Below are positions 2,892 through 40,409 of a stretch of DNA of 48,087 bases, in pieces; the stretch's first letter is position 1; the number at the start of each line of letters is the position of its first letter. Source of the DNA: an uncultured bacterium (GTDB lineage Bacteria; Cyanobacteriota; Vampirovibrionia; LMEP-6097). Where the stretch lies: assembly GCA_903930015.1 (NCBI GenBank), contig CAIYXB010000083.1, forward strand, positions 1 through 48,087. Direction: 5' to 3'. Both the position numbers and the translations under genes were made by a program. The notes beneath the pieces are model-generated. The model was not told where the DNA came from, did no database searches, and worked only from the letters and a program-made list of their open reading frames with translations.

Positions 2892-3729
2892 TTTTCAAGC
2901 CAAATTAAAAATTGGCAAAATTCTTTATCTATTGGTTTTGCTAACACTTGCAGCTATTTTTCTTTTACCAATAGCCATGCTTGTTTTAAGCAGTTTTAAG
3001 ACATCTGAGCAAATTTATAGCCCTAATTTCACTTTCATACCTGATCCATTTAGCTTACAAAATTTTATTGATGCTTTTAATAAAATCAATTTTCCTTTGG
3101 CACTATTCAATACACTCTACCTTGCATTTTTCAATATAATTGGTGTCCTCATTGCATCCTCACTTGCAGCGTATGCTTTTAGCGCGGTAGAGTGGAAAGG
3201 ACGTGACTTATGCTTTAGTATCACTCTTGCTACAATCATGCTTCCAGACATTGTTCTACTGATCCCACAGTTTATTTTTTTTAAAAGCCTTGGCTGGTAC
3301 GGGAACATGTTGCCTTTAATAATTCCATATTTTTGTGGCTTACCATTTTATATTTTTTTGCTTAGGCAATTCTTCATTAGTATTCCAAAAGATCTTGCAG
3401 ACTCCGCAAGAATAGATGGTGCTAGTGAATTTAGTATCTGGAAAGATATTTACTTGCCTTTATCAAAGCCTGCTCTTTTAATAGTTACACTTTTTCAGTT
3501 TCTAATCACATGGAATGATCTTATGAAACCCAGTATCTACCTAATAAATGAGCACCAATACAACTTGTCACTAGCGCTACATCAATTTCAATCTAAGCTT
3601 GGTGGAGCTCAATGGGGACCGCTTATGGCAGCAGTTCTTATAATGCTTTTACCTGTTGTAATATTATTTCTATTTTCTCAAAAATATTTTGTGAAAGGAA
3701 TTACAATGGGTGGTTTAAAGGAGAGCTAA
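2884..3729 (+). CDS. ABC transporter permease, carbohydrate (MalG/CUT1-like) type
   Basis: 281 aa, about 6 TM helices. EAA-loop region DSARIDGASEFSIWKDIYLPLSKPAL. Overlaps the thioesterase by 8 nt. Confidence 0.85.
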   Translation: MDNFQAKLKIGKILYLLVLLTLAAIFLLPIAMLVLSSFKTSEQIYSPNFTFIPDPFSLQNFIDAFNKINFPLALFNTLYLAFFNIIGVLIASSLAAYAFSAVEWKGRDLCFSITLATIMLPDIVLLIPQFIFFKSLGWYGNMLPLIIPYFCGLPFYIFLLRQFFISIPKDLADSARIDGASEFSIWKDIYLPLSKPALLIVTLFQFLITWNDLMKPSIYLINEHQYNLSLALHQFQSKLGGAQWGPLMAAVLIMLLPVVILFLFSQKYFVKGITMGGLKES

Positions 3730-7514: not shown

Positions 7515-8711
7515 GTGTTCATCAGGGAGATTAATCTAATAGGGTTTAGAAACTATGTGGAAGCCAGTTTAAAGCTGGATAGACAAAAAACTATCATCAT
7601 TGGTCGCAATGCCCAAGGGAAATCTAATTTGATTGAAGTGATTCAGTTACTTAGTCAATTTAAATCAAGACGAGCAAAAAAAGATTCTGAGTTAATAAAT
7701 TTTTCATTGGAAGAAGCAGTTATTAAAGTGAAAATTCAAAACACTCCTTCATCAACAAATTCGAAAGATGAAATTTTAAATTCTAGTTTTTGGGATGAAG
7801 AAACAGAAGATCAAAAAGAAATAGAAGAGTTTGGGTTACTTATTAGAAAATCCGGACGAAGAACTTATAAATTCAATGGCGCAAACAAAAAACCAAAAGA
7901 CTTATTACACAAAGTTCTTTGCGTTTCATTTATGTCAGAAGATTTAAATATTATCAATTCAAGCCCAAGCACACGAAGAGAGTACTTAGACTCTGTTATC
8001 AAACAACTTAGCAATAATTATTCGCAGGAGCTGTCAAAATTTGAAAAAACTTTATCGCAAAGAAATAGTCTTCTTAAGGATTTTGTTGATAAGGGCAAAT
8101 ATCACCCTAATAGCCTCAATCCAAGTGACCGAGCACAGCTTGGAGTATGGGATGAGATCTTTATTGAACAAGCCAATAAAATTACCCAGCAAAGAAAAGA
8201 TTTCATAGAAAGACTAGAGCCAGTAAGTGATGGATTCTATAAGCAAATCTCTGGTAGCGAGCACAACATTCTTAGTTTTAGATATACCGGAACAATAATA
8301 AATACTCAGGCACTCGAAGAACACTTGGCTAAAGATTTAGCCCGAGGCTACTGCAATCTAGGACCACATAGGGACGACATAGACATTCTGCTTAATGAAA
8401 ACTTAGCTGCAAGTTTTGCTAGTCAAGGTGAAAAAAGATCTATTCTGCTTGCAATGAAACTTAGCGAGCTAGAGTTATTAAAAAATCAGCACAATGATTA
8501 TCCAATTTTACTTTTGGACGATGTACTTGCAGAACTTGATGAGGATAGACAGGATTTTCTTTTAGATGCAGTCAGCTCTAAAGCACAAGTTATTATTACA
8601 ACAACTCATCTAGGAAAACACTTAGAAAAATGGAGCGAGGATTCTCAAATCGTAGAAATAGAAGCTGGCGAAATACTCAAATCAAACTCACCAGACCTCG
8701 CTAATGCATAA
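7515..8711 (+). CDS. recF: DNA replication and repair protein RecF
   Basis: GTG start. N-terminus IREINLIGFRNY, Walker A GRNAQGKSN, Walker B region ILLLDDVLAELD. Confidence 0.9.
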   Translation: MFIREINLIGFRNYVEASLKLDRQKTIIIGRNAQGKSNLIEVIQLLSQFKSRRAKKDSELINFSLEEAVIKVKIQNTPSSTNSKDEILNSSFWDEETEDQKEIEEFGLLIRKSGRRTYKFNGANKKPKDLLHKVLCVSFMSEDLNIINSSPSTRREYLDSVIKQLSNNYSQELSKFEKTLSQRNSLLKDFVDKGKYHPNSLNPSDRAQLGVWDEIFIEQANKITQQRKDFIERLEPVSDGFYKQISGSEHNILSFRYTGTIINTQALEEHLAKDLARGYCNLGPHRDDIDILLNENLAASFASQGEKRSILLAMKLSELELLKNQHNDYPILLLDDVLAELDEDRQDFLLDAVSSKAQVIITTTHLGKHLEKWSEDSQIVEIEAGEILKSNSPDLANA

Positions 8712-8770
8712 ATAGACCTGTTGCGAAAGTGCAACTTGAGCTAGAACAGGTCTAAACAAAGACACAAAAC
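8712..8770 (+). repeat. Family-1 ~59-nt hairpin element, copy 2
   Basis: Stem tagacctgtt (8713-8722) with aacaggtcta (8745-8754), with an inner gttgc-gaaagt-gcaac hairpin and an aacaaagacacaaaac tail. It begins 1 nt after the recF stop. Inverted match to 1-60. Confidence 0.8.
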
Positions 8771-8782
8771 CGAAGGTTTTGA

Positions 8783-8824
8783 TAGAGTTGTTAAGGAAGG
8801 GCTTGCCCTTTTGCAACAACTCTA
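8783..8824. repeat. 42-nt imperfect palindrome ending at the start codon of the DUF721 gene
   Basis: tagagttgtt (8783-8792) pairs with aacaactcta (8815-8824). Inner pairing aagggc/gccctt. The motif gcaacaactct also occurs in the left arm of family-2 copy C. Confidence 0.6.
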
Positions 8825-9193
8825 ATGAAAAAAGAATTTCCAAAAGATATTGAACTTAAGAATGGCAGAATTTTTGTCCAGAGAGACTTTTATGACATAA
8901 CAGAAGTTCTTGAGAGCATGAGTAAAAAACTCAAGCTTGATGAAAAGAAAAAAGATTTCAATATAATGCTTTATTGGAAAGATTTTATACTTGAAAACAC
9001 CAGTGAGCTAATTGCAAAAAATACTTTCGCTCACAGATTCACAAAAGACCGAAAACTTGTCATCGGAATAAAATCAGCAGTAATTGCAAATGAACTTCAA
9101 TTTATAAAAAATATAATCGAAAAAGAATTTTTAAAAGAAGTTCAGGAATACGATAGAGAGATCACAGGGATTGTATTTGAGTTGAGATCCTAG
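8825..9193 (+). CDS. DUF721 (DciA-like) protein
   Basis: 122 aa. Located directly after recF, the usual position for DUF721. Pattern W..F....T..L......HRF....KLVIGIKSAVIANELQF fits that family. The 3' end overlaps the convergent argB by 32 nt. Confidence 0.55.
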   Translation: MKKEFPKDIELKNGRIFVQRDFYDITEVLESMSKKLKLDEKKKDFNIMLYWKDFILENTSELIAKNTFAHRFTKDRKLVIGIKSAVIANELQFIKNIIEKEFLKEVQEYDREITGIVFELRS

Positions 9194-10064
9194 TCCCAGA
9201 ACCCTTATCAGTAAAGGTTTCCATCAAAAGACTGTGATCAGTAAGACCGTTTAAGATTATCGCTTCTTTTACACCTTTCTTAAGACCATTAATACAACAC
9301 TCTAGTTTCGGGATCATTCCACCACTAACTTCTTTTTTATCAATTTTGGACTGAGCTTCTTTTAGAGACAGTTCGCTAATTAACGAATCTGGATTTTTAA
9401 CATCTTCAAGTAAGCCAGGCACGTCTGTCATTAGTATCATTTTTTCGGCTTTGAGCTCAGCTGCAATTTCAGCACAAAGAGTATCAGCATTGATATTGAA
9501 AGCTTCACCAATTTCATTTGGAGCGATAGAACTTATGACAGGAATTAATCCTAAATCAAAAAGCTGATAAATAAGACCAAGATTTAATTTTTTAACTTGA
9601 CCAACCATATTATCAGCAGGCATCCCCTCAAGTCTTTCAGCAACAATTATTCTACCGTCTCTACCATTAAGACCGATAGCTTTTGCTCCAGTGCAATTAA
9701 TCATAGAAACAAGTCTACGTTGAATTTTCCCACTCAAAACCATTTCTACAATTTCTAAAGTCTCAGAATCTGTTTTTCTAAGTCCATTTTCAAAACAAAT
9801 TTCTTTACCAATCTTAGAGAGCATCTCATTGATTTCTGGTCCACCACCGTGAACAAGCACAGTCTTTATATTGACGCTGTTTAAAAGTACTAAATCTTTG
9901 ATAACACTTTGAGCTATTTTTGAATCAGTCAGAGCTGAACCACCATATTTAATTACAAAAATCTTATTCGTAAATTTCTGTATGTATGGTAGAGCTTCAG
10001 AAAGGTGTTGAACTCTTAATTCATGCGATTCATTTTTCATCATCTCATTAATTAAATCAGCCAT
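9162..10064 (-). CDS. argB: Acetylglutamate kinase
   Basis: Amino-acid kinase motifs VIKYGGSA and VLVHGGGPEIN, full length (300 aa). Confidence 0.9.
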   Translation of the reverse strand: MADLINEMMKNESHELRVQHLSEALPYIQKFTNKIFVIKYGGSALTDSKIAQSVIKDLVLLNSVNIKTVLVHGGGPEINEMLSKIGKEICFENGLRKTDSETLEIVEMVLSGKIQRRLVSMINCTGAKAIGLNGRDGRIIVAERLEGMPADNMVGQVKKLNLGLIYQLFDLGLIPVISSIAPNEIGEAFNINADTLCAEIAAELKAEKMILMTDVPGLLEDVKNPDSLISELSLKEAQSKIDKKEVSGGMIPKLECCINGLKKGVKEAIILNGLTDHSLLMETFTDKGSGTRISTQIQSL

Positions 10065-10735
10065 TTATCGCTATCCTCAAGTGCTATTTTTGCAGCTAAT
10101 TGACTTGCATCCTTTTTGGAAAAAGCCTTTGCTGTTGCTAAAAGCTTAGCATCTAAATAAACTCCGATTTCAAATTCTTTTTTATGATCTGGTCCTTTGC
10201 TTGAGATAACCTTATAAGCAGGAAGTATTTTAAATTTATCCTGAATTAACTCCTGTAAACGAGACTTATATTCTAGTTCGAGTGCATCCTCAATTGCCTG
10301 TGACATATCTTCTTGCCACAATTCCAGTATAAAGTCATGTGCTTTCTCAATACCAGAGTCCAGATAAATGGCTCCAATCAATGCTTCCACAGTATCTCCA
10401 ATTACCGAATCAGGGATATTATCGCGAGCAAGAGTAGTTCCAATTACAGCATGCTGAGCTAGATTCATTTTTTTAGCAAGTGAGGATAACATCTTATCCG
10501 AGATTAATTTAGCTCTATATTTTGTTAAAATCCCTTCTTGCGCTTTTGGGTATTTATCAAAAAGATATTTTGTAATTATCAGTTTTAATACTGCATCACC
10601 TAAAAATTCCAACCTTTCATTGTTACGAACAGTCTCATCTTCGCGACTTTTAGAACTATGAGTGAGTGCGTTTAATAGAAGATCCTTATCATTTATGGAA
10701 TTAATATATTTTTTCCATAAATCCGGATAACTCAT
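10052..10735 (-). CDS. rnc: Ribonuclease III
   Basis: RNase III signature NERLEFLGDAVL plus a C-terminal dsRNA-binding domain. Overlaps argB by 13 nt. Confidence 0.9.
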   Translation of the reverse strand: MSYPDLWKKYINSINDKDLLLNALTHSSKSREDETVRNNERLEFLGDAVLKLIITKYLFDKYPKAQEGILTKYRAKLISDKMLSSLAKKMNLAQHAVIGTTLARDNIPDSVIGDTVEALIGAIYLDSGIEKAHDFILELWQEDMSQAIEDALELEYKSRLQELIQDKFKILPAYKVISSKGPDHKKEFEIGVYLDAKLLATAKAFSKKDASQLAAKIALEDSDKWLI

Positions 10736-11802: not shown

Positions 11803-12660
11803 CTAAATAAGATTGCGACCGTAAAGAGTAAAGCCAATTTGCTCATCAAAATCAGCATAAATCCGTGAAAGCTTCATTAATTCAAGCATAGTAGAACCAG
11901 TAGTACAGATATCATCAATAATTAACAAAACATTTAAATCTTCCAAGCCAAGACTAATGCTTTTATTAATTTTAAAAGCATTACTAAGTTCTGAGATTCT
12001 AGACTCTTGCCCAAGATTAAAAAGTGGTTTTGTATCTTTTATTCTTACAAAAAAATTTTCCAGGAATTCAATTTTAGCTAAATCATGCTGATAAATACCT
12101 CTTGAACTTTGAAAAATAATTTTCATATTTCTAGATTTTTGTAAATGATCTAATAGGCTCGAACTTAGATCTTCCGCCAATAACGCTGCAAAATTAAAAG
12201 CTCTGTTTTTTTCCTTTTCTAAATACATAGGTGAATGAGTTATAAAGATATTTAATTTAATACTTGAATAAGGAAAATCTTCAACATAGGCTAAATTCAC
12301 ATCATCAGTCAGAATTTGATTTAAATTTTCCACGAAGAAAAAAGAAAGCTGCTGCGCAAAAAATTTTGAAAAATGAGGTCTAGTATATTTTGCTTTTTTA
12401 ATCAGATAGCTCGTTTTTTTGAAGAAATTTATTAAATAAAATATTTTCGGATGGAAAACTTGCTCATGATCCAAGAAAAAGTTATCAAGTATCTTATAAT
12501 CGATCACTTTCTTTTTTAGACTCAAATGTTCTTTGACACAGTTATCACAAACTAAAGCTCCCAAATTATTCCGACAAAAAAAACATAAGCGCGAAGAAAA
12601 AGAATCAAGCAGAGGCTCTAAGCAAGCTAAAAAAATATAATATATCTTTTTAAAAAGCAT
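11803..12660 (-). CDS. comF: ComF-family phosphoribosyltransferase-like protein
   Basis: N-terminal Cys pairs (CFFC...CDNC) and the C-terminal PRTase motif LLIIDDICTTGST. Confidence 0.7.
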   Translation of the reverse strand: MLFKKIYYIFLACLEPLLDSFSSRLCFFCRNNLGALVCDNCVKEHLSLKKKVIDYKILDNFFLDHEQVFHPKIFYLINFFKKTSYLIKKAKYTRPHFSKFFAQQLSFFFVENLNQILTDDVNLAYVEDFPYSSIKLNIFITHSPMYLEKEKNRAFNFAALLAEDLSSSLLDHLQKSRNMKIIFQSSRGIYQHDLAKIEFLENFFVRIKDTKPLFNLGQESRISELSNAFKINKSISLGLEDLNVLLIIDDICTTGSTMLELMKLSRIYADFDEQIGFTLYGRNLI

Positions 12661-12729
12661 ATATCAGATAAATTTATCAAATGCTTAAATTGAGTCAGTG
12701 GATTTACTTAAGTTAATTAATATACTATA

Positions 12730-12871
12730 AAAAGTTTTCTACAATTTTTAACGACCCTTTCGCATTCGGCGCAGCTGCTGTGATGATGTTTTTGTTGTTT
12801 TGCTTCGCAAAACTTAAATGCTACATCAATCCGATATGCTCCAGGGTGTTAAAAATTTCCCGAAAACTTTT
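12730..12871 (+). repeat. Family-2 ~142-nt hairpin element, copy A (most diverged)
   Basis: Terminal inverted repeats aaaagttttctacaatttttaac and gttaaaaatttcccgaaaactttt. Shared core ctttcgcattcggcgcagctgctgtg...gttttgcttcgcaaaac...caatccgatatgct. Intergenic. Confidence 0.85.
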
Positions 12872-12986
12872 TTGGTTTGTTCTATTACTCCGCAAATGTC
12901 AACGAATTACACGACCCGTACTATTCCGAGCTTTTGAAGAAAGTGACTTAATCAATCACCGCCTAGAGAATAAGTATAAGATTTGA

Positions 12987-13472
12987 CTATTTCTTAGATT
13001 TATTGACAAACATAAGACTAACTAAACTACCAAAAAAGGATATTGTTGTTGTAAAAACAATACTCACAAGCCCTAAAATAAAATAGAAGCTTGGACCTAA
13101 ATCATTCAAGAAATTAAATTCTAGTTGAGATTTCATTTTCATCTGCTCATTAATTTGATCAATAATCAATTGCTTTACTTCTGGATTATTTAAATTGATC
13201 GCCATAACTAGAGTTAAAATTGAGCCAACTACAATCCCTGTAGCAATTCCTAAAACGGAGATATCAAATAGCTTAGTTTCATAATTTTCATTTTCAGTTT
13301 CTTTAATTTTTTCAGACCTGAAAATAAATACAGCGATAACTCCACCAATAAAATAACTCAACATTGGAAAACCAATTATTGGTAAAGCCAAGAAAGTATT
13401 CAGAAGAATAACAACTGATGAAGCAATTAAAATTGGCTTAAAATATGGATCCATAGTTAATAACTTTAGCAA
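12987..13472 (-). CDS. Hypothetical polytopic membrane protein
   Basis: 161 aa with 4 hydrophobic helices. No family recognised. Confidence 0.6.
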   Translation of the reverse strand: MLKLLTMDPYFKPILIASSVVILLNTFLALPIIGFPMLSYFIGGVIAVFIFRSEKIKETENENYETKLFDISVLGIATGIVVGSILTLVMAINLNNPEVKQLIIDQINEQMKMKSQLEFNFLNDLGPSFYFILGLVSIVFTTTISFFGSLVSLMFVNKSKK

Positions 13473-13502
13473 AAGTACAGTAAATCAGAAAAGTTTTCAA
13501 AA

Positions 13503-14483
13503 TTACTGCCGAATTCTTTGCTTGTACTCATATTTTGCACCTTCGGGATAGTACCATTTAATTAACTGACCAGTTTGACCAAGAATATAGGTTTTACCAT
13601 CAGCATATACTTTAAATGCACCAGCATTTCCACTTGCAAGAGCAAATCCAATATCATCTTTAAACTCAAATTTACTTGGTTCAATATCAGGATATGCCTC
13701 TCCTTCAAAAAGTGTCTTACCAGCTGCGATTCCATAGACTTGAAACCAAGCAACTTCACTAACTTTTAATTTTAAAGATTTCTGACCATCACCAAAAACA
13801 TAGAAAATTTGTTTCTTCACTTTGCTTTCGCTCTCTTTAGTATACAAATCAGACACTTTTGGTAATTTGATTTCTACAGAATTTTCTTTTATACTTGAAT
13901 CATTATCATCAGGATTCTCTTTTGCTTCTGAATCATCTAGAGGAAGTTCAAGATCAATTCCAATAACTTTTTCTTCAATAGCTCTAATTGGTTCTTCAGT
14001 GCTAGATACACTAGTTGAAGAACCTTTCTTTTTTAATGTTGAAAGAGTAATTATATTTTCTTGTTTTTCAATTTTTACAAATCTTTCATTCAGATTCAAA
14101 AGGTAAAAAAGACCCAATAAAATCAAAAGACCAATAAAAATATAGAGGTGATATATTTTCAAAAAACTTATATTAAATTCATTAGATTCTTCCGCAATAT
14201 GATTTTCGTTTAAAATATTTTGAACTATATACTGGCTTTCACCTTTTTTATAGTCTTCGATGATAGTTTGATAATTTTTTAAATTAAGAGCTTTAGATAT
14301 TTTATTTAAAAAACCCATCAAGTAAGCTTCTTCAGGAACAGCTTCTCTGTTAGCGTTTTCTATATTTTCGATATGGTGAACTGCAATACGGCATTTCTCA
14401 GCAAGCTCCTCTATACTAAGACCGGCTTGCAATCTTGCTTTCTTAAAAGTATCTCCAAGTGTTTTTAAGGGGTCTTCAACCAT
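13503..14483 (-). CDS. rodZ: RodZ-like cytoskeleton protein (HTH, TM helix, C-terminal DUF4115-like domain)
   Basis: N-terminal XRE-type HTH (LGDTFKKARLQAGLSIEELAEKCRIAVHHIENIE), a single TM helix (YHLYIFIGLLILLGLFYLL), an acidic linker, and a C-terminal beta-rich domain. Confidence 0.6.
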   Translation of the reverse strand: MVEDPLKTLGDTFKKARLQAGLSIEELAEKCRIAVHHIENIENANREAVPEEAYLMGFLNKISKALNLKNYQTIIEDYKKGESQYIVQNILNENHIAEESNEFNISFLKIYHLYIFIGLLILLGLFYLLNLNERFVKIEKQENIITLSTLKKKGSSTSVSSTEEPIRAIEEKVIGIDLELPLDDSEAKENPDDNDSSIKENSVEIKLPKVSDLYTKESESKVKKQIFYVFGDGQKSLKLKVSEVAWFQVYGIAAGKTLFEGEAYPDIEPSKFEFKDDIGFALASGNAGAFKVYADGKTYILGQTGQLIKWYYPEGAKYEYKQRIRQ

Positions 14484-14487
14484 CTGC

Positions 14488-15390
14488 TTATGAGAAAATT
14501 ACCTTTGGTTGTAATTCTAGACTTCCACCTCTTTTAAGAAGCTGTGCAAGCCCAATTAGTTCCTCATCCTCACCGATACATTGGACATAATACTCTTCAT
14601 TATTGTCTAGACATTTTTCTAAGTGATCTACCTTATCAATTAAAACTCTCTTTCCTTGCTGTAAAGCAATTACATCTTTTTTATTAAAATCTATACTTGG
14701 TAAAGATAAAAAGTCTTTTGGCTCTAATATAAAATCTTCTAGATTTACTTCTCTATCTTCAAGATCCTCAAATCTAATTGATGAACCTAATTCAAAATCA
14801 TTAGACTTTGTTCTTCTTAGAGTTGTTAAATGTGCTCCTACATCTCTTGCAATAGATCGAATATATGTACCCTCACCACATTCAACACTGATTTTGGCAT
14901 AAGGGAAATTAAATTCTAATATTTGAATTTTACTGATATGAACAATCTTGGGTTTTATATCACTTAAATCAAGCTGAGCACCAGCTCTCATTAGTTCATA
15001 AAGCTTTTTTCCGTTGATTTTTTTTGCACTATATAAAGGAGGGTATTGTTCAAAATCTCCAAGCATTTTACTAAATTTTTCTTCTAATTCATTTTGACTA
15101 ATGGCTTTCAAACCATCAGTAATTTTATATCCGGTTATATCATCAGTATCTGTTAAAAAGTTAAAGTCAAGTTCAGCTATATACGCTTTATTTTTTGATA
15201 AAAACCTAATCAATCGAGTTGCATCACCAATCGCAATTGGTAAAACACCAGTTGCGAAAGGATCTAAAGTACCCGTATGACCAATTTTTTTATATCTAAG
15301 GATTTTTCTGAGCTTTGCTACAACATCATGAGAAGTCCAATCTTCTGGCTTATCAATATTTATGAATCCAAAATATTCTTTTTCTGCCAC
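14488..15390 (-). CDS. truB: tRNA pseudouridine-55 synthase
   Basis: TruB catalytic motif GHTGTLDPFATGVLPI, full length. Confidence 0.9.
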   Translation of the reverse strand: MAEKEYFGFINIDKPEDWTSHDVVAKLRKILRYKKIGHTGTLDPFATGVLPIAIGDATRLIRFLSKNKAYIAELDFNFLTDTDDITGYKITDGLKAISQNELEEKFSKMLGDFEQYPPLYSAKKINGKKLYELMRAGAQLDLSDIKPKIVHISKIQILEFNFPYAKISVECGEGTYIRSIARDVGAHLTTLRRTKSNDFELGSSIRFEDLEDREVNLEDFILEPKDFLSLPSIDFNKKDVIALQQGKRVLIDKVDHLEKCLDNNEEYYVQCIGEDEELIGLAQLLKRGGSLELQPKVIFS

Positions 15391-21265: not shown

Positions 21266-21296
21266 TCTGATCACTTTGTTAATAGAGTTGTTCAAA

Positions 21297-21438
21297 AAAA
21301 GTTTTCTTCAATTTGCAACAAACCTTTCGCATTCGGCGCTGCTGCTGTGGCAAGGTTTTTGTCGTTTTGCTTCGCAAAACATGTATGCAACGCCAATCCA
21401 ATATGCTTCAGGGTGTTGCAAATTTTTTGAAAACTTTT
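21297..21438 (+). repeat. Family-2 ~142-nt hairpin element, copy B
   Basis: TIRs aaaagttttcttcaatttgcaaca and tgttgcaaattttttgaaaactttt. The core is shared with copies A and C. It lies between the convergent uvrC and recA. Confidence 0.9.
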
Positions 21439-21550
21439 CTACTTTACAATATTTGAATTCCTTTGCCAAGCCTGCAGTGAAGGAACTGGGGCTACTCACA
21501 ACAATGACAGATACTTTCTTACTTACTATAAGGTAAAATGCAGACGTTTA

Positions 21551-21581
21551 AAAAAAGGACCCACTGAATCAGTGGGTCCTT
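21551..21581 (-). terminator. Rho-independent terminator of recA
   Basis: Stem aaggacccact/agtgggtcctt with loop gaatc. On the minus strand it is followed by tttttt. Confidence 0.8.
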
Positions 21582-25864: not shown

Positions 25865-25985
25865 TACTACAGTAAACCAATTAAAAATGTCATTGCTGTA
25901 AGGGTTACGTAATACGTTGACAGTTTAAGTAGTACTCATTAACTCTAATAGCTTTATCTCAATGAATTAAACGCGACAGCCCTGA

Positions 25986-29119: not shown

Positions 29120-29216
29120 AGCTACAAGCACCAAAATAGAATGCACTGAAACTCACTATTTAAGTGGGTTTTTGTGCTTAAGTAGCAGTTCACAGAAGAA
29201 TAGTATATTAAACCCG

Positions 29217-29358
29217 AAAAGTTTTCTTCAAATCGCAACAACTCTTTCGCATTCGGCGCAGCTGCTGTGGCAATTTTTTTGTTGTTTTGCTTTGCAAAAC
29301 GAATAGGCAACGCCAATCCGATATGCTTCAGAGTGTTGCGAATTTTCCAAAAACTTTT
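29217..29358 (+). repeat. Family-2 ~142-nt hairpin element, copy C
   Basis: TIRs aaaagttttcttcaaatcgcaaca and tgttgcgaattttccaaaaactttt. The stem can be extended inward to gcattcgg/ccgatatgc. It lies between flagellin and the caspase-like gene. Confidence 0.9.
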
Positions 29359-29535
29359 CTTGTTTAATATAAGTACCAGTAGCCTAATAATACATGTGGA
29401 GTTTGATTGCAAGCTTTTACGTAACCCTCAGATTAAAAAACTTCTTTTATTAGTGCGCCCTTAACCGCTTCTTAAAAGAAATTTGTTAGTTATGTATTCG
29501 TAGAGGAGTATTTTATTCTCTACACATCTCCCCAG

Positions 29536-30813: not shown

Positions 30814-31409
30814 TTACATTTCTCAATAAGAAATTTATCCAAAATATTTTTCTGTTCTTCAAGTGAATATTTAAAATTTTCAAAACCAGCTTTGCGTCTC
30901 TGTCTTGTCATTTCAAAAAGACAAATAGCTGCTGTCACTGATAGATTCAGGCTTTGGATCAAACCTTGCATGGGGATATTTAGAATTGCATCAGACTGTT
31001 CAATTAATGAATCGCTTAAACCCTCTTTTTCATTACCAAAACAAATAGCAAACTTTTCACTCGCACAAAAATCAAATTCAAAAATCGAAGTTGAATTATC
31101 TGTCAGTGCTGTTGCGATAATTTTATAATTTTCTTCTTTAAGTTTTTTTATGCATTTTTCTGTTGAATCAAAGATTTCATAATCTATCCATTTATTAGCT
31201 GATGCCGCTGCTAACTTACCAAATTTAGTTGGATCAAAAGCTTTTTTCTTTTCAAAAATTAAGTAAACTTTTTGAATCCCAAAACACTCACAACTTCTTA
31301 TCACAGCAAAGGCGTTGTGCTTATCTATAATATCTTGAAGTACTACAACTCCCTGCTGCCTATTTAAGGCTGCTTTTTTTATTCTTTCTAATCTTCTTTG
31401 AGTAACCAT
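30810..31409 (-). CDS. trmH: SpoU/TrmH-family RNA 2'-O-methyltransferase
   Basis: C-terminal SPOUT motifs FGNEKEGLS and IPMQGLIQSLNLSVTAAICLFE. Confidence 0.85.
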   Translation of the reverse strand: MVTQRRLERIKKAALNRQQGVVVLQDIIDKHNAFAVIRSCECFGIQKVYLIFEKKKAFDPTKFGKLAAASANKWIDYEIFDSTEKCIKKLKEENYKIIATALTDNSTSIFEFDFCASEKFAICFGNEKEGLSDSLIEQSDAILNIPMQGLIQSLNLSVTAAICLFEMTRQRRKAGFENFKYSLEEQKNILDKFLIEKCN

Positions 31410-31436
31410 TATAAAAACGCTATAATTTTAACTCAT

Positions 31437-32317: not shown

Positions 32318-33904
32318 ATGAAAAGAAATTTGATACTTAGTCTTTTATTTTGCTTATCTACAAGCCAAGCAGTTTTTGCAAATGCAGATCATTACACCAC
32401 AAGAACTATTGATGGCAAATACAATAATATAAAAAATAAAAATTGGGGTAAATCTGGCTGTCCATTTTCAAGGTTTGCACAAGACCAGTATACAGATAAA
32501 AAAGACGGTGAAATGCCTCTAGAACATCTTCCTAATCCAAGAAGAGTCTCTAATGAAATTTTTAATCAAAAAGCAGAAGTTTTAAATGACAGAAATTTAT
32601 CCGATATAGTTTGGCAATGGGGACAGTTACTTGATCACGATATGACTTTATTTGAAGATAGTAAAGAAGAGCCAATGCCGATCGAAGTTCCAGCAGGAGA
32701 CGAAATATTTGATAAAAATTCACAAGGAAATTTAGCACTAACTTTTTTCAGATCAATTTCAAGAATTGGCACAAGAACAGAAACACGAACTCCAGTGAAT
32801 ATAAATACCTCTTATATAGATGCATCAACAGTCTATGGTTCTGATGAAACAAGAGCAAGGGTACTTAGAGACTTAAACAACAAAGGATTAATGAAAGTTA
32901 GTGATGGAAATAGATTGCCATTTAATCTTTTTGGACTCCCAAACGGTGGTGGAGCTAACAACAAAAACATGTATCTATCTGGTGATCCTCGCACAAATGA
33001 ACAAATTGGTCTTCTAACCATACATACACTTTTTGTAAGAGAACATAATAGAAAAGCAAAAGAAATAGCTGCTAAAAATCCTGAGTTAAGCGACGAAGAG
33101 ATTTACAGAAAAACTAGAGAATATGTTGGTGCACTCACTCAGCATATTACTTACTCTGAGTTTTTACCTGCCTTACTAGGAAAGGATGCCATAAAACCTT
33201 ACACTGGCTATAACAGTAAAATACTACCTTCTATCAGAAATGAATTTTCGACTTTTGCTTTTAGATTTGGTCATACAGCAGTATCTCCAACAATCAAAAG
33301 AGTTGATAACGAGGGTAAAGATCTTGGTGATATCGTTTTAATGGAATCATTTTTCAAACCTCAATTACTGTCTAGCTCCCAAGAAGTTGGTTATATAATG
33401 AAAGGCTTAGCATCAAAGAGAATGCAAGAGATTGATACAGAGGTTATCGATGGGCTAAGAAACTTTTTATTCAAAGATGTTCCTAATGAGCAAATGCGTG
33501 ACTTGATTTCAATCAACCTTCAAAGAAGTCGTGATCATGGAATTACTGATATTAATACTTTAAGAGCAAGTTTTGGATTAAAACCATATACTAGTTTTTC
33601 TGAAGTAACTAAAAATAAAGAACTTGTAGCTAAGCTTCAAAGTCTTTATGCAAAAGTTGAAGACGTAGATCCATTTGTACTCGTTCTTGCTGAAGATCAC
33701 TTACCAGGAACTTCAATGGGTGAAACTATTTCAAGGATTTTAGTAGAGCAGTTTACAAGACTGCGTGATGGAGATAGATTTTATTTTGAAAATAAATTGC
33801 CACCAGAAGAAGTCGCTGAAATAAAAGCACTTAAGTTGTCTGATATTATTAAACTCAATACACAAATTTCTAATATCCAAGAGAATGTATTTTTTGTGAA
33901 TTAG
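32318..33904 (+). CDS. Secreted animal-type haem peroxidase (peroxidase-cyclooxygenase superfamily)
   Basis: Signal peptide. Distal-His motif WQWGQLLDHD, Ca-site YIDASTVYGS, GDPRTNEQIGLLTIHTLFVREHNR, proximal-His FRFGHT. Confidence 0.9.
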   Translation: MKRNLILSLLFCLSTSQAVFANADHYTTRTIDGKYNNIKNKNWGKSGCPFSRFAQDQYTDKKDGEMPLEHLPNPRRVSNEIFNQKAEVLNDRNLSDIVWQWGQLLDHDMTLFEDSKEEPMPIEVPAGDEIFDKNSQGNLALTFFRSISRIGTRTETRTPVNINTSYIDASTVYGSDETRARVLRDLNNKGLMKVSDGNRLPFNLFGLPNGGGANNKNMYLSGDPRTNEQIGLLTIHTLFVREHNRKAKEIAAKNPELSDEEIYRKTREYVGALTQHITYSEFLPALLGKDAIKPYTGYNSKILPSIRNEFSTFAFRFGHTAVSPTIKRVDNEGKDLGDIVLMESFFKPQLLSSSQEVGYIMKGLASKRMQEIDTEVIDGLRNFLFKDVPNEQMRDLISINLQRSRDHGITDINTLRASFGLKPYTSFSEVTKNKELVAKLQSLYAKVEDVDPFVLVLAEDHLPGTSMGETISRILVEQFTRLRDGDRFYFENKLPPEEVAEIKALKLSDIIKLNTQISNIQENVFFVN

Positions 33905-38461: not shown

Positions 38462-39501
38462 AAAAAAATAAATTAAAGCCTTTCTTTATTCTAGTGTGCA
38501 GTTCAACAGAATTAAGTAATGTTGAGGGTATTTCTGCGGCAGGTGCAAATCCAGAAGCTCAAAGACTTACTCCAAGCTTAGATGCTGAATTTATAGCTCT
38601 TGGTAAAACATTATCAGCAGAAACTTTACCTGTTTCACCAGAGGGAATTATCAGCCCTGCAATTATTAGTAAAGCTTGCCTAAACCTTCTTGATGCAAAG
38701 ATAGTAGTTATAAATGCTGGTTGCTTTCATCCGATAAAAGGTTTAGACCCTAAGCAGTATTTCAATCTTGGCTTAGAGCCATCAAAAAACTTTGCAATAG
38801 AAGATTCTTTTTCTTTTGATGAATGTGAGGCAATATTCTTAGACTCACTGGAACTATTCAATAAGTTAGATTTCAACGAAGAAGAACATGAATTAATCAT
38901 TGCTGAGTGTGTAGTAGGTGGAACAACTACCGCGCTTGGATTACTAGAACTACTTGGCTATGATGCTAAAGAGCTTATATCAAGCAGCTTTAAAGACAAC
39001 AATAAAAATCTTAAAGAAAAAATCATCAATGCATTAAAATTAAGAACAAAAGAACTTGATATGAGTGAGCTTGATAACCCTTTATATAAATGCGCTATCG
39101 CTGGAGATAAAGCACAAGTAGTTATTACAGGATTAGCACTTTCTGCCATGCAAAATGGAATCAATGTAAATCTTGCTGGCGGTACGCAAATGCTTGCAAT
39201 TTATGCACTCATAAAAACCTTAACGGAAGGCTTTTTCATGGAAGAACTAATTGATGTAACAACAAGCCCATGGTTAATTAGCGACTCAAGTTCAAATGCT
39301 CTTGAGCTAGCTAATCTGATTAATGAAGACTTAGAACTAAATTACTTAGAAGACCTAACTTCAATTGAAGAGAAACTGTCAAAAGAAATTAGTAAGTTCA
39401 CAGGATATCCTGGCTGGCAAGAAATCAAAGCCTTATACAATAAAGGTTATGTCAAAGAAGGTGTGGGGATGGGAGCTCTATTAAAATTATTAGAGTTCTA
39501 A
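38458..39501 (+). CDS. CobT-like phosphoribosyltransferase homologue (UPF0284 / TIGR00303-like)
   Basis: N-terminal VEGISAAGANPE...LDAEFI and central AECVVGGTTTALGLL motifs. ATGA overlap with cobA. Confidence 0.65.
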   Translation: MKKNKLKPFFILVCSSTELSNVEGISAAGANPEAQRLTPSLDAEFIALGKTLSAETLPVSPEGIISPAIISKACLNLLDAKIVVINAGCFHPIKGLDPKQYFNLGLEPSKNFAIEDSFSFDECEAIFLDSLELFNKLDFNEEEHELIIAECVVGGTTTALGLLELLGYDAKELISSSFKDNNKNLKEKIINALKLRTKELDMSELDNPLYKCAIAGDKAQVVITGLALSAMQNGINVNLAGGTQMLAIYALIKTLTEGFFMEELIDVTTSPWLISDSSSNALELANLINEDLELNYLEDLTSIEEKLSKEISKFTGYPGWQEIKALYNKGYVKEGVGMGALLKLLEF

Positions 39502-39514
39502 TATCATAATCCAG

Positions 39515-39585
39515 AAAAGTTTTCTCCAAATTGGCAACGCCAATCCGATATGCTTCAGGGTGTTGCCAATTTTCCGAAAACTTTT
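39515..39585 (+). repeat. Family-2 element, copy D: 71-nt internally deleted form
   Basis: aaaagttttctccaaattggcaac | gccaatccgatatgcttcagggt | gttgccaattttccgaaaactttt. It fills the gap between the convergent cobT-like gene and trpC. Confidence 0.85.
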
Positions 39586-39599
39586 CTAATTTTAGGATA

Positions 39600-40409
39600 C
39601 TAAAAAATAAGCTTTTTAACTGCCTCTTCTAAATCATCCTGGGTTATCAAAGATTCACCAACCAAGAAGCCCTTAACACCTATTTGCTCAAGGAGTGCAA
39701 TATCTTGCTTAGAGGAAATTCCAGATTCACTTACAATGGTCATTCCACCAAGATCATACTTGAACTTACTAATCATTTTTGAAGTAGTATCAAGCGAAAC
39801 TTCAAATGTATTGAGGTTTCTGTTATTAATACCTACTAAATCAAAACCTAAGCTTAAAACTCTTTCCATTTCTACATCATCATGCACTTCAACAAGAACA
39901 TCCATTCCATAATCCTCAATCAAAAATTTAAAAGCTTCTAGTTTTTTATTATCGAGGATAGCTGCAATCAAAAGCACTGCATCTGCACCTGAAATTCTAG
40001 CTTGAGCTATTTGCCTCTCATCAATAATAAAATCCTTACACAGACAGGGAATATCGTATTCAGAAGAAACAAGTATTAAGTTCTCAAAACTACCTTTAAA
40101 AAAATGGCTGTCAGTAAGGACACTAAAGCAATGCGCACCACCTTGTCGATACTGTTTAGCGATTTCTAATACATCAAAATCTTCACGAAAAACACCTTTT
40201 GAAGGACTAGCTTTTTTAAGTTCTGCAATAATAGCAGGACCATTAGCTTCTCTGATTTTATTTGCAAAACCTTTTGTAACAGGCAAAGACTCTGCTTGAA
40301 TTAAATCATCAAGTCTATCTTGTAAACTTTCAAAGCTATCAAAACTTTCTAAGTCGATTAATTTTTGCGCAACAATTTTATCTAGAATTGAAGACATTTT
40401 AAGCAACAA
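39600..40409 (-). CDS. trpC: Indole-3-glycerol phosphate synthase
   Basis: IAELKKASPSKG, CLCKDFIID and VLLIAAIL motifs. The start overlaps the cysN stop by 11 nt. Confidence 0.9.
   Translation of the reverse strand: MLLKMSSILDKIVAQKLIDLESFDSFESLQDRLDDLIQAESLPVTKGFANKIREANGPAIIAELKKASPSKGVFREDFDVLEIAKQYRQGGAHCFSVLTDSHFFKGSFENLILVSSEYDIPCLCKDFIIDERQIAQARISGADAVLLIAAILDNKKLEAFKFLIEDYGMDVLVEVHDDVEMERVLSLGFDLVGINNRNLNTFEVSLDTTSKMISKFKYDLGGMTIVSESGISSKQDIALLEQIGVKGFLVGESLITQDDLEEAVKKLIF

Follow-up and report, generated by a model that had tools for sequence, protein, structure and literature searches.

The 48,087-nt contig CAIYXB010000083.1 of an uncultured bacterium, referred to here as the window, carries a dispersed family of short repeats that fold into long imperfect hairpins. 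[quoted passage not shown] A preliminary description of this DNA, made without database searches, had likened the architecture to MITE, Correia or ERIC elements, and the behaviour of the family now agrees with that likeness: one site that is filled in the window is empty in two relatives, and copy content varies between close genomes. The copies sit in spacers near gene 3' ends, often in spacers that gather other repeat families as well.

Four copies of a hairpin repeat

The repeat was recovered exactly four times in the window, as three full copies (A, B and C) and one internally deleted copy (D), on the + strand in each case. MAFFT alignment, repeat finding and an nhmmer profile built from the three long copies agree on these four, which had been reported from the sequence by eye, and the profile returned no further copies from the whole window (Table 1; E values refer to the 48,087-nt window, + strand). 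Pairwise identities are 82.6% for A and B, 80.6% for A and C and 86.1% for B and C, the last close to the earlier visual estimate of about 85%; copy D is ~90% identical to B or C over the portion that it retains. Two sequence subtypes can be told apart, subtype I (GTGATGA...GCTACATC), to which copy A belongs, and subtype II, which comprises copies B, C and D. The conserved termini are GAAAAGTTTTC...GAAAACTTTTC, so that the terminal inverted repeats proposed earlier are present and extend one base further on each side than was given. The comparatively GC-rich core was also recognized correctly, with a G+C fraction of 0.37-0.41 for the element and 0.46 for its inner core versus 0.31 for intergenic DNA.

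Each copy folds as a single long imperfect hairpin. Folding energies of the full copies are -43.5 to -46.8 kcal/mol (z -3.8 to -6.8 against shuffled sequence) and that of the copy D hairpin is -29 kcal/mol (z -7.2); the reverse strands fold about equally well. The RNAalifold consensus consists of three successive helices, the terminal one with 11 pairs, the second with 15 and the third with 8 (GCATTCGG with CCGATATGC), and an apical hairpin, GTTTTGC-TTY-GCAAAAC. It includes all of the helices named in the preliminary description, among them caacaactct/agagtgttg and gcattcgg/ccgatatgc. The two outer helices, that is, the terminal inverted repeats and a second helix of ~15 bp, together contribute 26 pairs that are 93% paired across copies. 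In self-inverted blastn comparisons the palindrome continues beyond the core by ~13 nt in copy C and by ~34 nt in copy D, so the 142-nt boundaries first proposed were too tight; the core measures 144 nt and the palindrome at most ~170 nt. Because the palindrome extends past the conserved termini, these do not define the true ends of the element.

Copy A lies between minus-strand genes and is antisense to both. Copy B begins 31 nt past the uvrC stop codon, upstream of a terminator shared by uvrC and recA (21555-21581). Copy D lies between convergent genes, 13 nt past one stop codon and 13 nt short of the trpC stop codon. The description of the family as strictly intergenic holds for the core; the outer arms of copy D reach into the last codons of both flanking genes, touching both stop codons. 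Likewise, the copies do lie on the + strand whatever the orientation of their neighbours, but read as a bias four of four has a two-sided p of 0.125 and is not significant. In copy D, ~24 nt remain from the left arm and 47 nt from the right part, joined at GCAAC, a motif that is present twice in full copies. A fifth trace of the family is a 28-nt fragment at 13470-13497 that resembles the left outer arm and left terminus.

Table 1 Features of the repeat family in the window and of the variable blocks that contain it.
Feature	Position	Strand	Remarks
Copy A, full length, subtype I	12729..12872	+	nhmmer E 4.7e-46; cmsearch 173 bits
Copy B, full length, subtype II	21296..21439	+	nhmmer E 7e-48; cmsearch 167 bits
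Copy C, full length, subtype II	29216..29359	+	nhmmer E 1.4e-47; one base longer on each side than first described
Copy D, internally deleted, subtype II	39514..39586	+	nhmmer E 7.5e-15; cmsearch 45 bits
End fragment, 28 nt	13470..13497	+	ends in GAAAAGTTTT; 23/28 match to 29199-29226
Copy C, helix 1	29216-29226 with 29349-29359		
Copy C, helix 2	29230-29245 with 29330-29344		
Copy C, helix 3	29249-29256 with 29318-29326		
Copy C, apical hairpin	29284-29300		
Full palindrome around copy C	29204..29371		self-inverted blastn match; outer arms TATATTAAAC / GTTTAATATA
Extended imperfect palindrome around copy D	39481..39619		self-inverted blastn match, 68% over 144 columns
Site-A block without counterpart in L129	12722..12883		blastn breakpoints, alignment
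Site-B variable block	21266..21550		from just past the uvrC stop codon to just before the terminator
Site-C block absent from L129 and L133	29180..29458		identical breakpoints in both (blastn, alignment)

Occupancy of the sites in related genomes

Related loci were reached through their proteins and fall into three tiers, throughout which gene order is conserved: L118-L122 and L124-L128, from congeners whose UvrC is 76-82% identical; L129 and L136, from a contig of 229,737 nt with ~88-90% nucleotide identity; and L133-L135, L137 and L138, from a closer genome with ~93-95% nucleotide identity. At 4-fold degenerate sites the closest genome diverges from the window by 0.12-0.26 and the 229,737-nt contig by 0.27-0.40; between these two relatives the figure is 0.41. 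A comparison of filled and empty sites of the kind suggested in the preliminary description finds the site-C block missing from both L129 and L133. In each, the flagellin terminator runs directly into the downstream spacer, and site C is a clean filled/empty pair. At site A, L129 has a different, 418-nt repeat-rich stretch at identical junctions, and the site-B block gives way to other repeat DNA of 567 nt in L134 and 730 nt in L129 and has next to no counterpart in L122. L129 also lacks the 28-nt end fragment. Across the distant congeners (four to five; ~60 kb non-redundant, 105 kb in total) neither nhmmer nor a covariance model found a copy, and their site-A and site-B spacers are short, at 43-89 nt (L122, L127). 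Among the close relatives, ~44 kb of one and ~25 kb of another each contain a single copy, at site D; the high genomic copy number suggested earlier was an extrapolation that these counts do not establish.

Site D is filled in both close relatives, by a full-length copy with a nested insert in L136 and by a copy with a disrupted left arm in L137/L138. Both relatives carry subtype I (GTGATGA, GCTACATC), 88-91% identical to window copy A (91% for L137), so that one site holds subtype II in the window and subtype I in the relatives. This pattern of occupancy places the family before the split of the three genomes and indicates gains at new sites in the window lineage. The copy D deletion, the L136 insert and the damaged L137 arm indicate that copies decay by deletion and by insertion of other repeats. 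The divergence among copies, 14-19%, set against the 4-fold divergence of 0.12-0.26 between the window and L133, is consistent with copies that inserted shortly after these two lineages separated and have since decayed more or less neutrally.

Two details of these sites are recorded here in their own right. The insert in L136 (~3389-3456) is a 62-nt palindrome (AACACGG...CCGTGTT, GCCCCTTTGGGGC) placed just after CATTCGGC, a repeat within a repeat. Relative to L129, the 28-nt fragment at 13470-13497 is an insertion that forms a small palindrome (CAGTAAATCAGAAAAG / TTTTCAAAATTACTG) with pre-existing sequence and is bordered by CAAAA at either end; a deleted copy may have left it behind, or it may be a templated insertion. 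A possible repeat at this fragment (CAAAA..TAC.G) and a possible 9-11-nt repeat at site C (TTTTTGTGC..) were set aside, as alignment ambiguity explains each at least as well.

MITEs are typically shorter than ~200-400 bp, have terminal inverted repeats, form long stem-loops and lie at gene 3' ends, where they are co-transcribed (PMC3184786). The present family has the short size, the terminal inverted repeats and the dispersed polymorphic copies; neither a target duplication nor a cognate transposase was found, and membership of the MITE class in the strict sense is not proven. In the proposed mechanism, an enzyme encoded elsewhere in the genome would move the copies, recognizing their ends, their folded form or both. 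After insertion the stem may be kept since the hairpin matters, whether as DNA in mobilization or as RNA, in which case a stem-loop in the upstream gene's 3' untranslated region (UTR) could end or stabilize the transcript; alternatively, the stem might be kept by arm-against-arm repair of imperfect palindromes.

Several observations weigh against a mobile repeat of this kind. There is no target-site duplication at the eight termini of the four copies, as the preliminary description had already noted, nor any direct repeat longer than 3 nt (CTT) at the edges of the site-C block, though the element ends are too loosely defined to rule out a 2-nt duplication such as TA. The block inserted at site C, 261-279 nt, is larger than the palindrome and includes unique DNA on its left (~24 nt) and right (70-87 nt); block B is built much the same way, with 31 nt and 112 nt flanking the copy. 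The outer arms differ between copies while being complementary inside each copy, and the ends cannot be fixed. No autonomous partner or longer element with the same ends was found in ~270 kb (the window and ~220 kb of relatives). Only six copies in all are available from the window and its relatives, and the site-D copies of the two close relatives are more alike than neutral decay of an old insertion predicts, as discussed below. As to the enzyme, the open reading frames (ORFs) of the window that were scanned against Pfam have no transposase, integrase, Y1_Tnp or RAYT domain, as the preliminary description had stated for transposases; precomputed Pfam matches showed no transposase domain among the syntenic genes of L118, and the called genes of the relatives' loci include no Y1 transposase, RAYT or integrase. 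L129 has, between recA and the glutamate dehydrogenase gene, a 290-aa ORF (14098-14970) that is missing from the window and has no Pfam domain; considered as a transposase candidate, it was rejected for want of such a domain.

Maintenance of the stem and rival explanations

Covariation between the arms was evaluated by aligning the three full window copies with the site-D copy of L136. Of 41 pairs, 7 have changed in both partners and still pair, all of them in the two outer helices, and 93.9% of cells are paired; the score was matched by none of 500 shuffles, and sliding the partner columns gives 0-2 compensated pairs. Pairs 6/139 and 7/138 distinguish the L136 copy (GAAAAAATTTC/GAATTTTTTTT) from the window copies (GAAAAGTTTTC/GAAAACTTTTC), and window copy D has a matched additional G and C (TTGGCAAC/GTTGCCAA). 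If the site-D copies stem from one insertion, the compensation occurred in place. Would-be G-U wobbles are balanced, two on the + strand and three on the - strand, and thus give no sign of one transcribed strand. The stem is preserved and its arms change together, and with six copies in total hairpin selection and arm-against-arm repair both account for this. A further comparison, in which the inner core of the window copies appeared more conserved than the arms (27% versus 38% variable columns), was dropped as the difference does not look significant by eye.

The site-D copies of L136 and L137 show 0 substitutions over ~101 aligned columns and differ by two single-base indels only. Over the adjoining 170 columns, made up of spacer and the 3' end of trpC, the same two loci have 22 differences (13%), and the 4-fold sites of trpC differ at 41%; at a rate of 13%, the probability of no substitutions in 101 columns is <1e-6. 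The identity may reflect strong constraint on the core, recent re-insertion or conversion at a favoured spot from a horizontally shared active source, or a repeat collapsed to its dominant variant in metagenome assembly.

Site D is also where a function is easiest to envisage. The element is the sole hairpin between two convergent genes, and in L136 and L137 its right end is a stem followed by T8, so it could plausibly serve as a transcript end. The copies might accordingly be viewed as a structured RNA or cis element under purifying selection (a 3'-UTR stem-loop, a terminator or a small RNA) that has been duplicated, mobility being secondary or absent. The covarying stems speak for this, as do the retention of the site-D copy in three lineages with no substitution in ~100 nt between L136 and L137, the T-rich 3' flank on the + strand of all copies and the weak internal hairpin with a T-run behind it that three of three full copies show, exclusively on the + strand. 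Yet the element is dispensable at sites B and C, where good terminators are present in any case and close relatives lack it. The equal folding of both strands, the balanced wobble mismatches and the antisense position of copy A fit poorly with a transcript, and the nested insert and lost left arm of the L136 and L137 copies are hard to square with selection on the whole fold. Matches to outward promoters in the copies occur only at the level of shuffled sequence, with none conserved above chance. Rfam, a check proposed in the preliminary description, gave no match for the whole window at curated thresholds; with thresholds relaxed, only sub-threshold chance matches were seen, for example of C/D-box models through TGATGA, in copies A and C and that of L137. 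On balance we consider a duplicated functional RNA unlikely. That the copies are a family of small protein genes, for example for a type I toxin with an mRNA folded over its full length, is hardly credible. Several frames are open across copies, one has a hydrophobic stretch (FAFGAAAVAIFLLFCFA) and an ATG-started peptide, MLQGVANF.., occurs in all copies, but no ribosome-binding site precedes either start codon, the peptides vary in length (14-33 residues) and in their C-termini, and the hydrophobic frame is wholly lost in copy D. Frameshifts from copy to copy break the short frames, with 1- and 2-nt indels shifting both frames in L136 and L137, and none of the six reading frames matches any of 5.8 billion proteins; on the frameshifts this explanation was rejected.

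The lack of a target duplication at the filled/empty pair would also be expected if the element moved as a folded single strand or by site-specific hairpin recombination, in the manner of IS200/IS605-derived elements, REP/RAYT or attC sites, rather than through a classical inverted-repeat transposase. Those systems insert without target duplication, are recognized as a folded strand, conserve structure over sequence and have a strand-specific orientation. Here, too, compensated changes preserve structure rather than sequence, all copies including the relatives' site-D copies share one orientation, and the reuse of the same junctions by different repeats (sites A and B) or subtypes (site D) suggests that particular spots are targeted. 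However, with four copies the shared orientation has p = 0.125, no cassette array is present, and neither the window nor the genes called at the relatives' loci encode a Y1 transposase, RAYT or integrase, which such elements need. Elements of the IS200/IS605 type end in two separate subterminal hairpins and lack long terminal inverted repeats, and a REP unit measures 20-40 nt, whereas a single palindrome of 140-170 nt spans the whole unit here. An IS200/IS605-type or REP/RAYT unit was rejected on the one long palindrome and the lack of Y1_Tnp or RAYT domains in the window and neighbouring loci, and an integron attC site on the syntenic housekeeping neighbours (uvrC, recA, flagellin, trpC) and the lack of an integrase; movement by such a route is in our judgement rather improbable. 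The arm covariation could instead be a functionless mutational by-product of template-switch correction of imperfect palindromes combined with gene conversion among copies. Quasi-palindrome correction is an established mutational mechanism, and it would suit the compensated changes at what is apparently one insertion (site D, window versus L136) and the outer arms that match within a copy and differ between copies; conversion by other copies would explain subtype II at window site D against subtype I in the relatives. It leaves the L136/L137 identity across genomes unexplained and is, with six copies, inseparable from selection. We think it very unlikely as an account in itself; it concerns maintenance only and is compatible with a MITE-like mobile repeat rather than a replacement for it.

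The substitution-free site-D copies, the compensated stem changes, the subtype switch at site D and the lack of target duplication also point to a stronger proposal, a hairpin unit with actively maintained sequence and fold. This would be a mobile functional RNA or DNA element of a new class, possibly a family of small RNAs or a module that carries a 3' end or terminator from place to place, or else the substrate of a site-specific hairpin recombination that makes no duplication and repeatedly rewrites one set of spacers; we regard it as distinctly unlikely. Should selection, and not repair alone, preserve the hairpin, the copies by uvrC, the flagellin gene and trpC may shape transcript ends, and the substitution-free copies in two diverged genomes would imply very recent horizontal spread or constrained function.

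Neighbouring repeats and comparison with known systems

The window has 33.7% G+C and housekeeping genes in ordinary order (uvrC, recA, glutamate dehydrogenase, flagellin, sulfate-assimilation genes, trpC and asnB), and every 4-kb bin has a GC skew that is negative or near zero, without a clear sign change. By UvrC, the closest named relatives carry the labels Candidatus Caenarcaniphilales, Melainabacteria or Cyanobacteria, and the window comes from a Melainabacteria genome near Caenarcaniphilales, a non-photosynthetic relative of the cyanobacteria. A 528-aa protein encoded at 32318-33904 has a full-length match to the animal haem peroxidase family (PF03098, E 1e-145) and is conserved in L133.

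Other repeats occupy the same spacers. A second palindromic family of ~117 nt (core TAGACCTGTT...AACAGGTCTA) is present in the window at 1-62 and, inverted, at 8711-8827, and in relatives at L133 3132-3250, at the starts of L134 and L135 and at L118 3154-3427, 4752-4872 and 9868-9986. Its copies from different genomes and sites are 97-98% identical, and the L133 copy is an insertion relative to window ~31408-31411; this family looks more recently active than the hairpin family of copies A-D. The window contig and contigs of two relatives start inside a ~117-nt copy, which indicates that this family breaks assemblies. Short repeat modules (for example ATTACT..GTCAACGAATTACACGACCC) are found in the window at 25892-25963 and 12884-12940, in L129 at 3254-3291, 3624-3674, 12006-12043 and 12296-12355, and in L134 at 10040-10095; they fill sites A and B in relatives, and copy A abuts one. 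The uvrC-recA spacer of L118 contains an unrelated element of ~145 nt (12130-12275, GGGGTCAT...ATGACCCC) inserted beside CCGGG. In L116, from another sample, recA differs from that of the window at 1 of 1140 bases and the spacer upstream of it is identical, while the 90 nt between the recA terminator and copy B are ~65-70% similar (L116 1236-1430 versus window 21440-21550); L116 stops before copy B. This stretch may be hypervariable, or a repeat module may have been exchanged within the species. Exact protein matches, used to reach contigs of the same species, led only to 1.4-kb contigs ending short of the element. Together with at least two others in the same spacers, the hairpin family breaks metagenome assemblies and diversifies the spacers of very close genomes, and such repeats could serve as strain markers.

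Database searches returned no relative of the hairpin family. No similar DNA was found in plasmids, phages or viral contigs, and a blastn search with 29204-29371 against 5,426 complete E. coli genomes (28 Gb) gave no match at E<=0.01. A 16-mer core pattern matched 115 loci in 596 Gb of genome contigs, none of which has the right half of the element; these are chance matches to a pattern that is too short. A two-block pattern gave one GC-rich chance match in metagenomes, its first pattern base being one that would have missed the L137 copy. A limited literature search found no description of small mobile repeats of Melainabacteria.

Among known systems, the Correia elements (CREE/NEMIS) of Neisseria offer a close parallel in form: they measure ~104-157 bp, occur as full-length and internally deleted forms, have terminal inverted repeats of ~26 bp that make the whole unit a long hairpin, and are present in many copies in gene-adjacent spacers with presence varying among close strains (PMC3184786). 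They differ in having a TA target duplication, an IHF site and outward promoters, whereas here there is no evident TA duplication and promoter-like matches do not exceed chance. Their host phylum is unrelated. The two are set side by side by description, and the arm covariation and cross-genome identity of the Melainabacteria repeat are not known as features of Correia. The ERIC or IRU sequences of Enterobacteriaceae are likewise imperfect palindromes (~127 bp) in transcribed spacers, usually at gene 3' ends, with size variants that arise by internal deletion or insertion and an RNA fold that can alter the fate of the mRNA (PMC3184786). ERIC-type repeats are, however, reported with TA at both termini and target duplications (PMC3184786), and since the E. 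coli genomes searched contain ERIC and REP/BIME, the lack of a match rules out both by sequence.

The pneumococcal RUP, BOX and SPRITE repeats are unrelated small families that pile up in shared spacers and insert into each other (PMC10969869), much as other repeats occupy sites A and B in relatives here and a nested insert interrupts the L136 copy. SPRITE is moreover terminator-like, and the Melainabacteria copies end in a stem followed by T-rich DNA; phylum and sequences are different, and RUP has an identified likely parent insertion sequence, with none known here. Cyanobacterial MITEs (Nezha, MaeMITE and those of Anabaena) come from the sister lineage and share a length of 130-435 bp, inverted-repeat termini, intergenic location and multiple copies (PMC3184786). 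They were compared by description only and are defined with target duplications and a link to a transposase, neither of which was found in the present family. The best-supported placement is therefore that of a new family comparable to Correia, ERIC and RUP, unrelated to ERIC by sequence and set beside Correia and RUP by description. Most likely the repeat is an ordinary kind of genome parasite, though one whose hairpin has been kept unusually intact.

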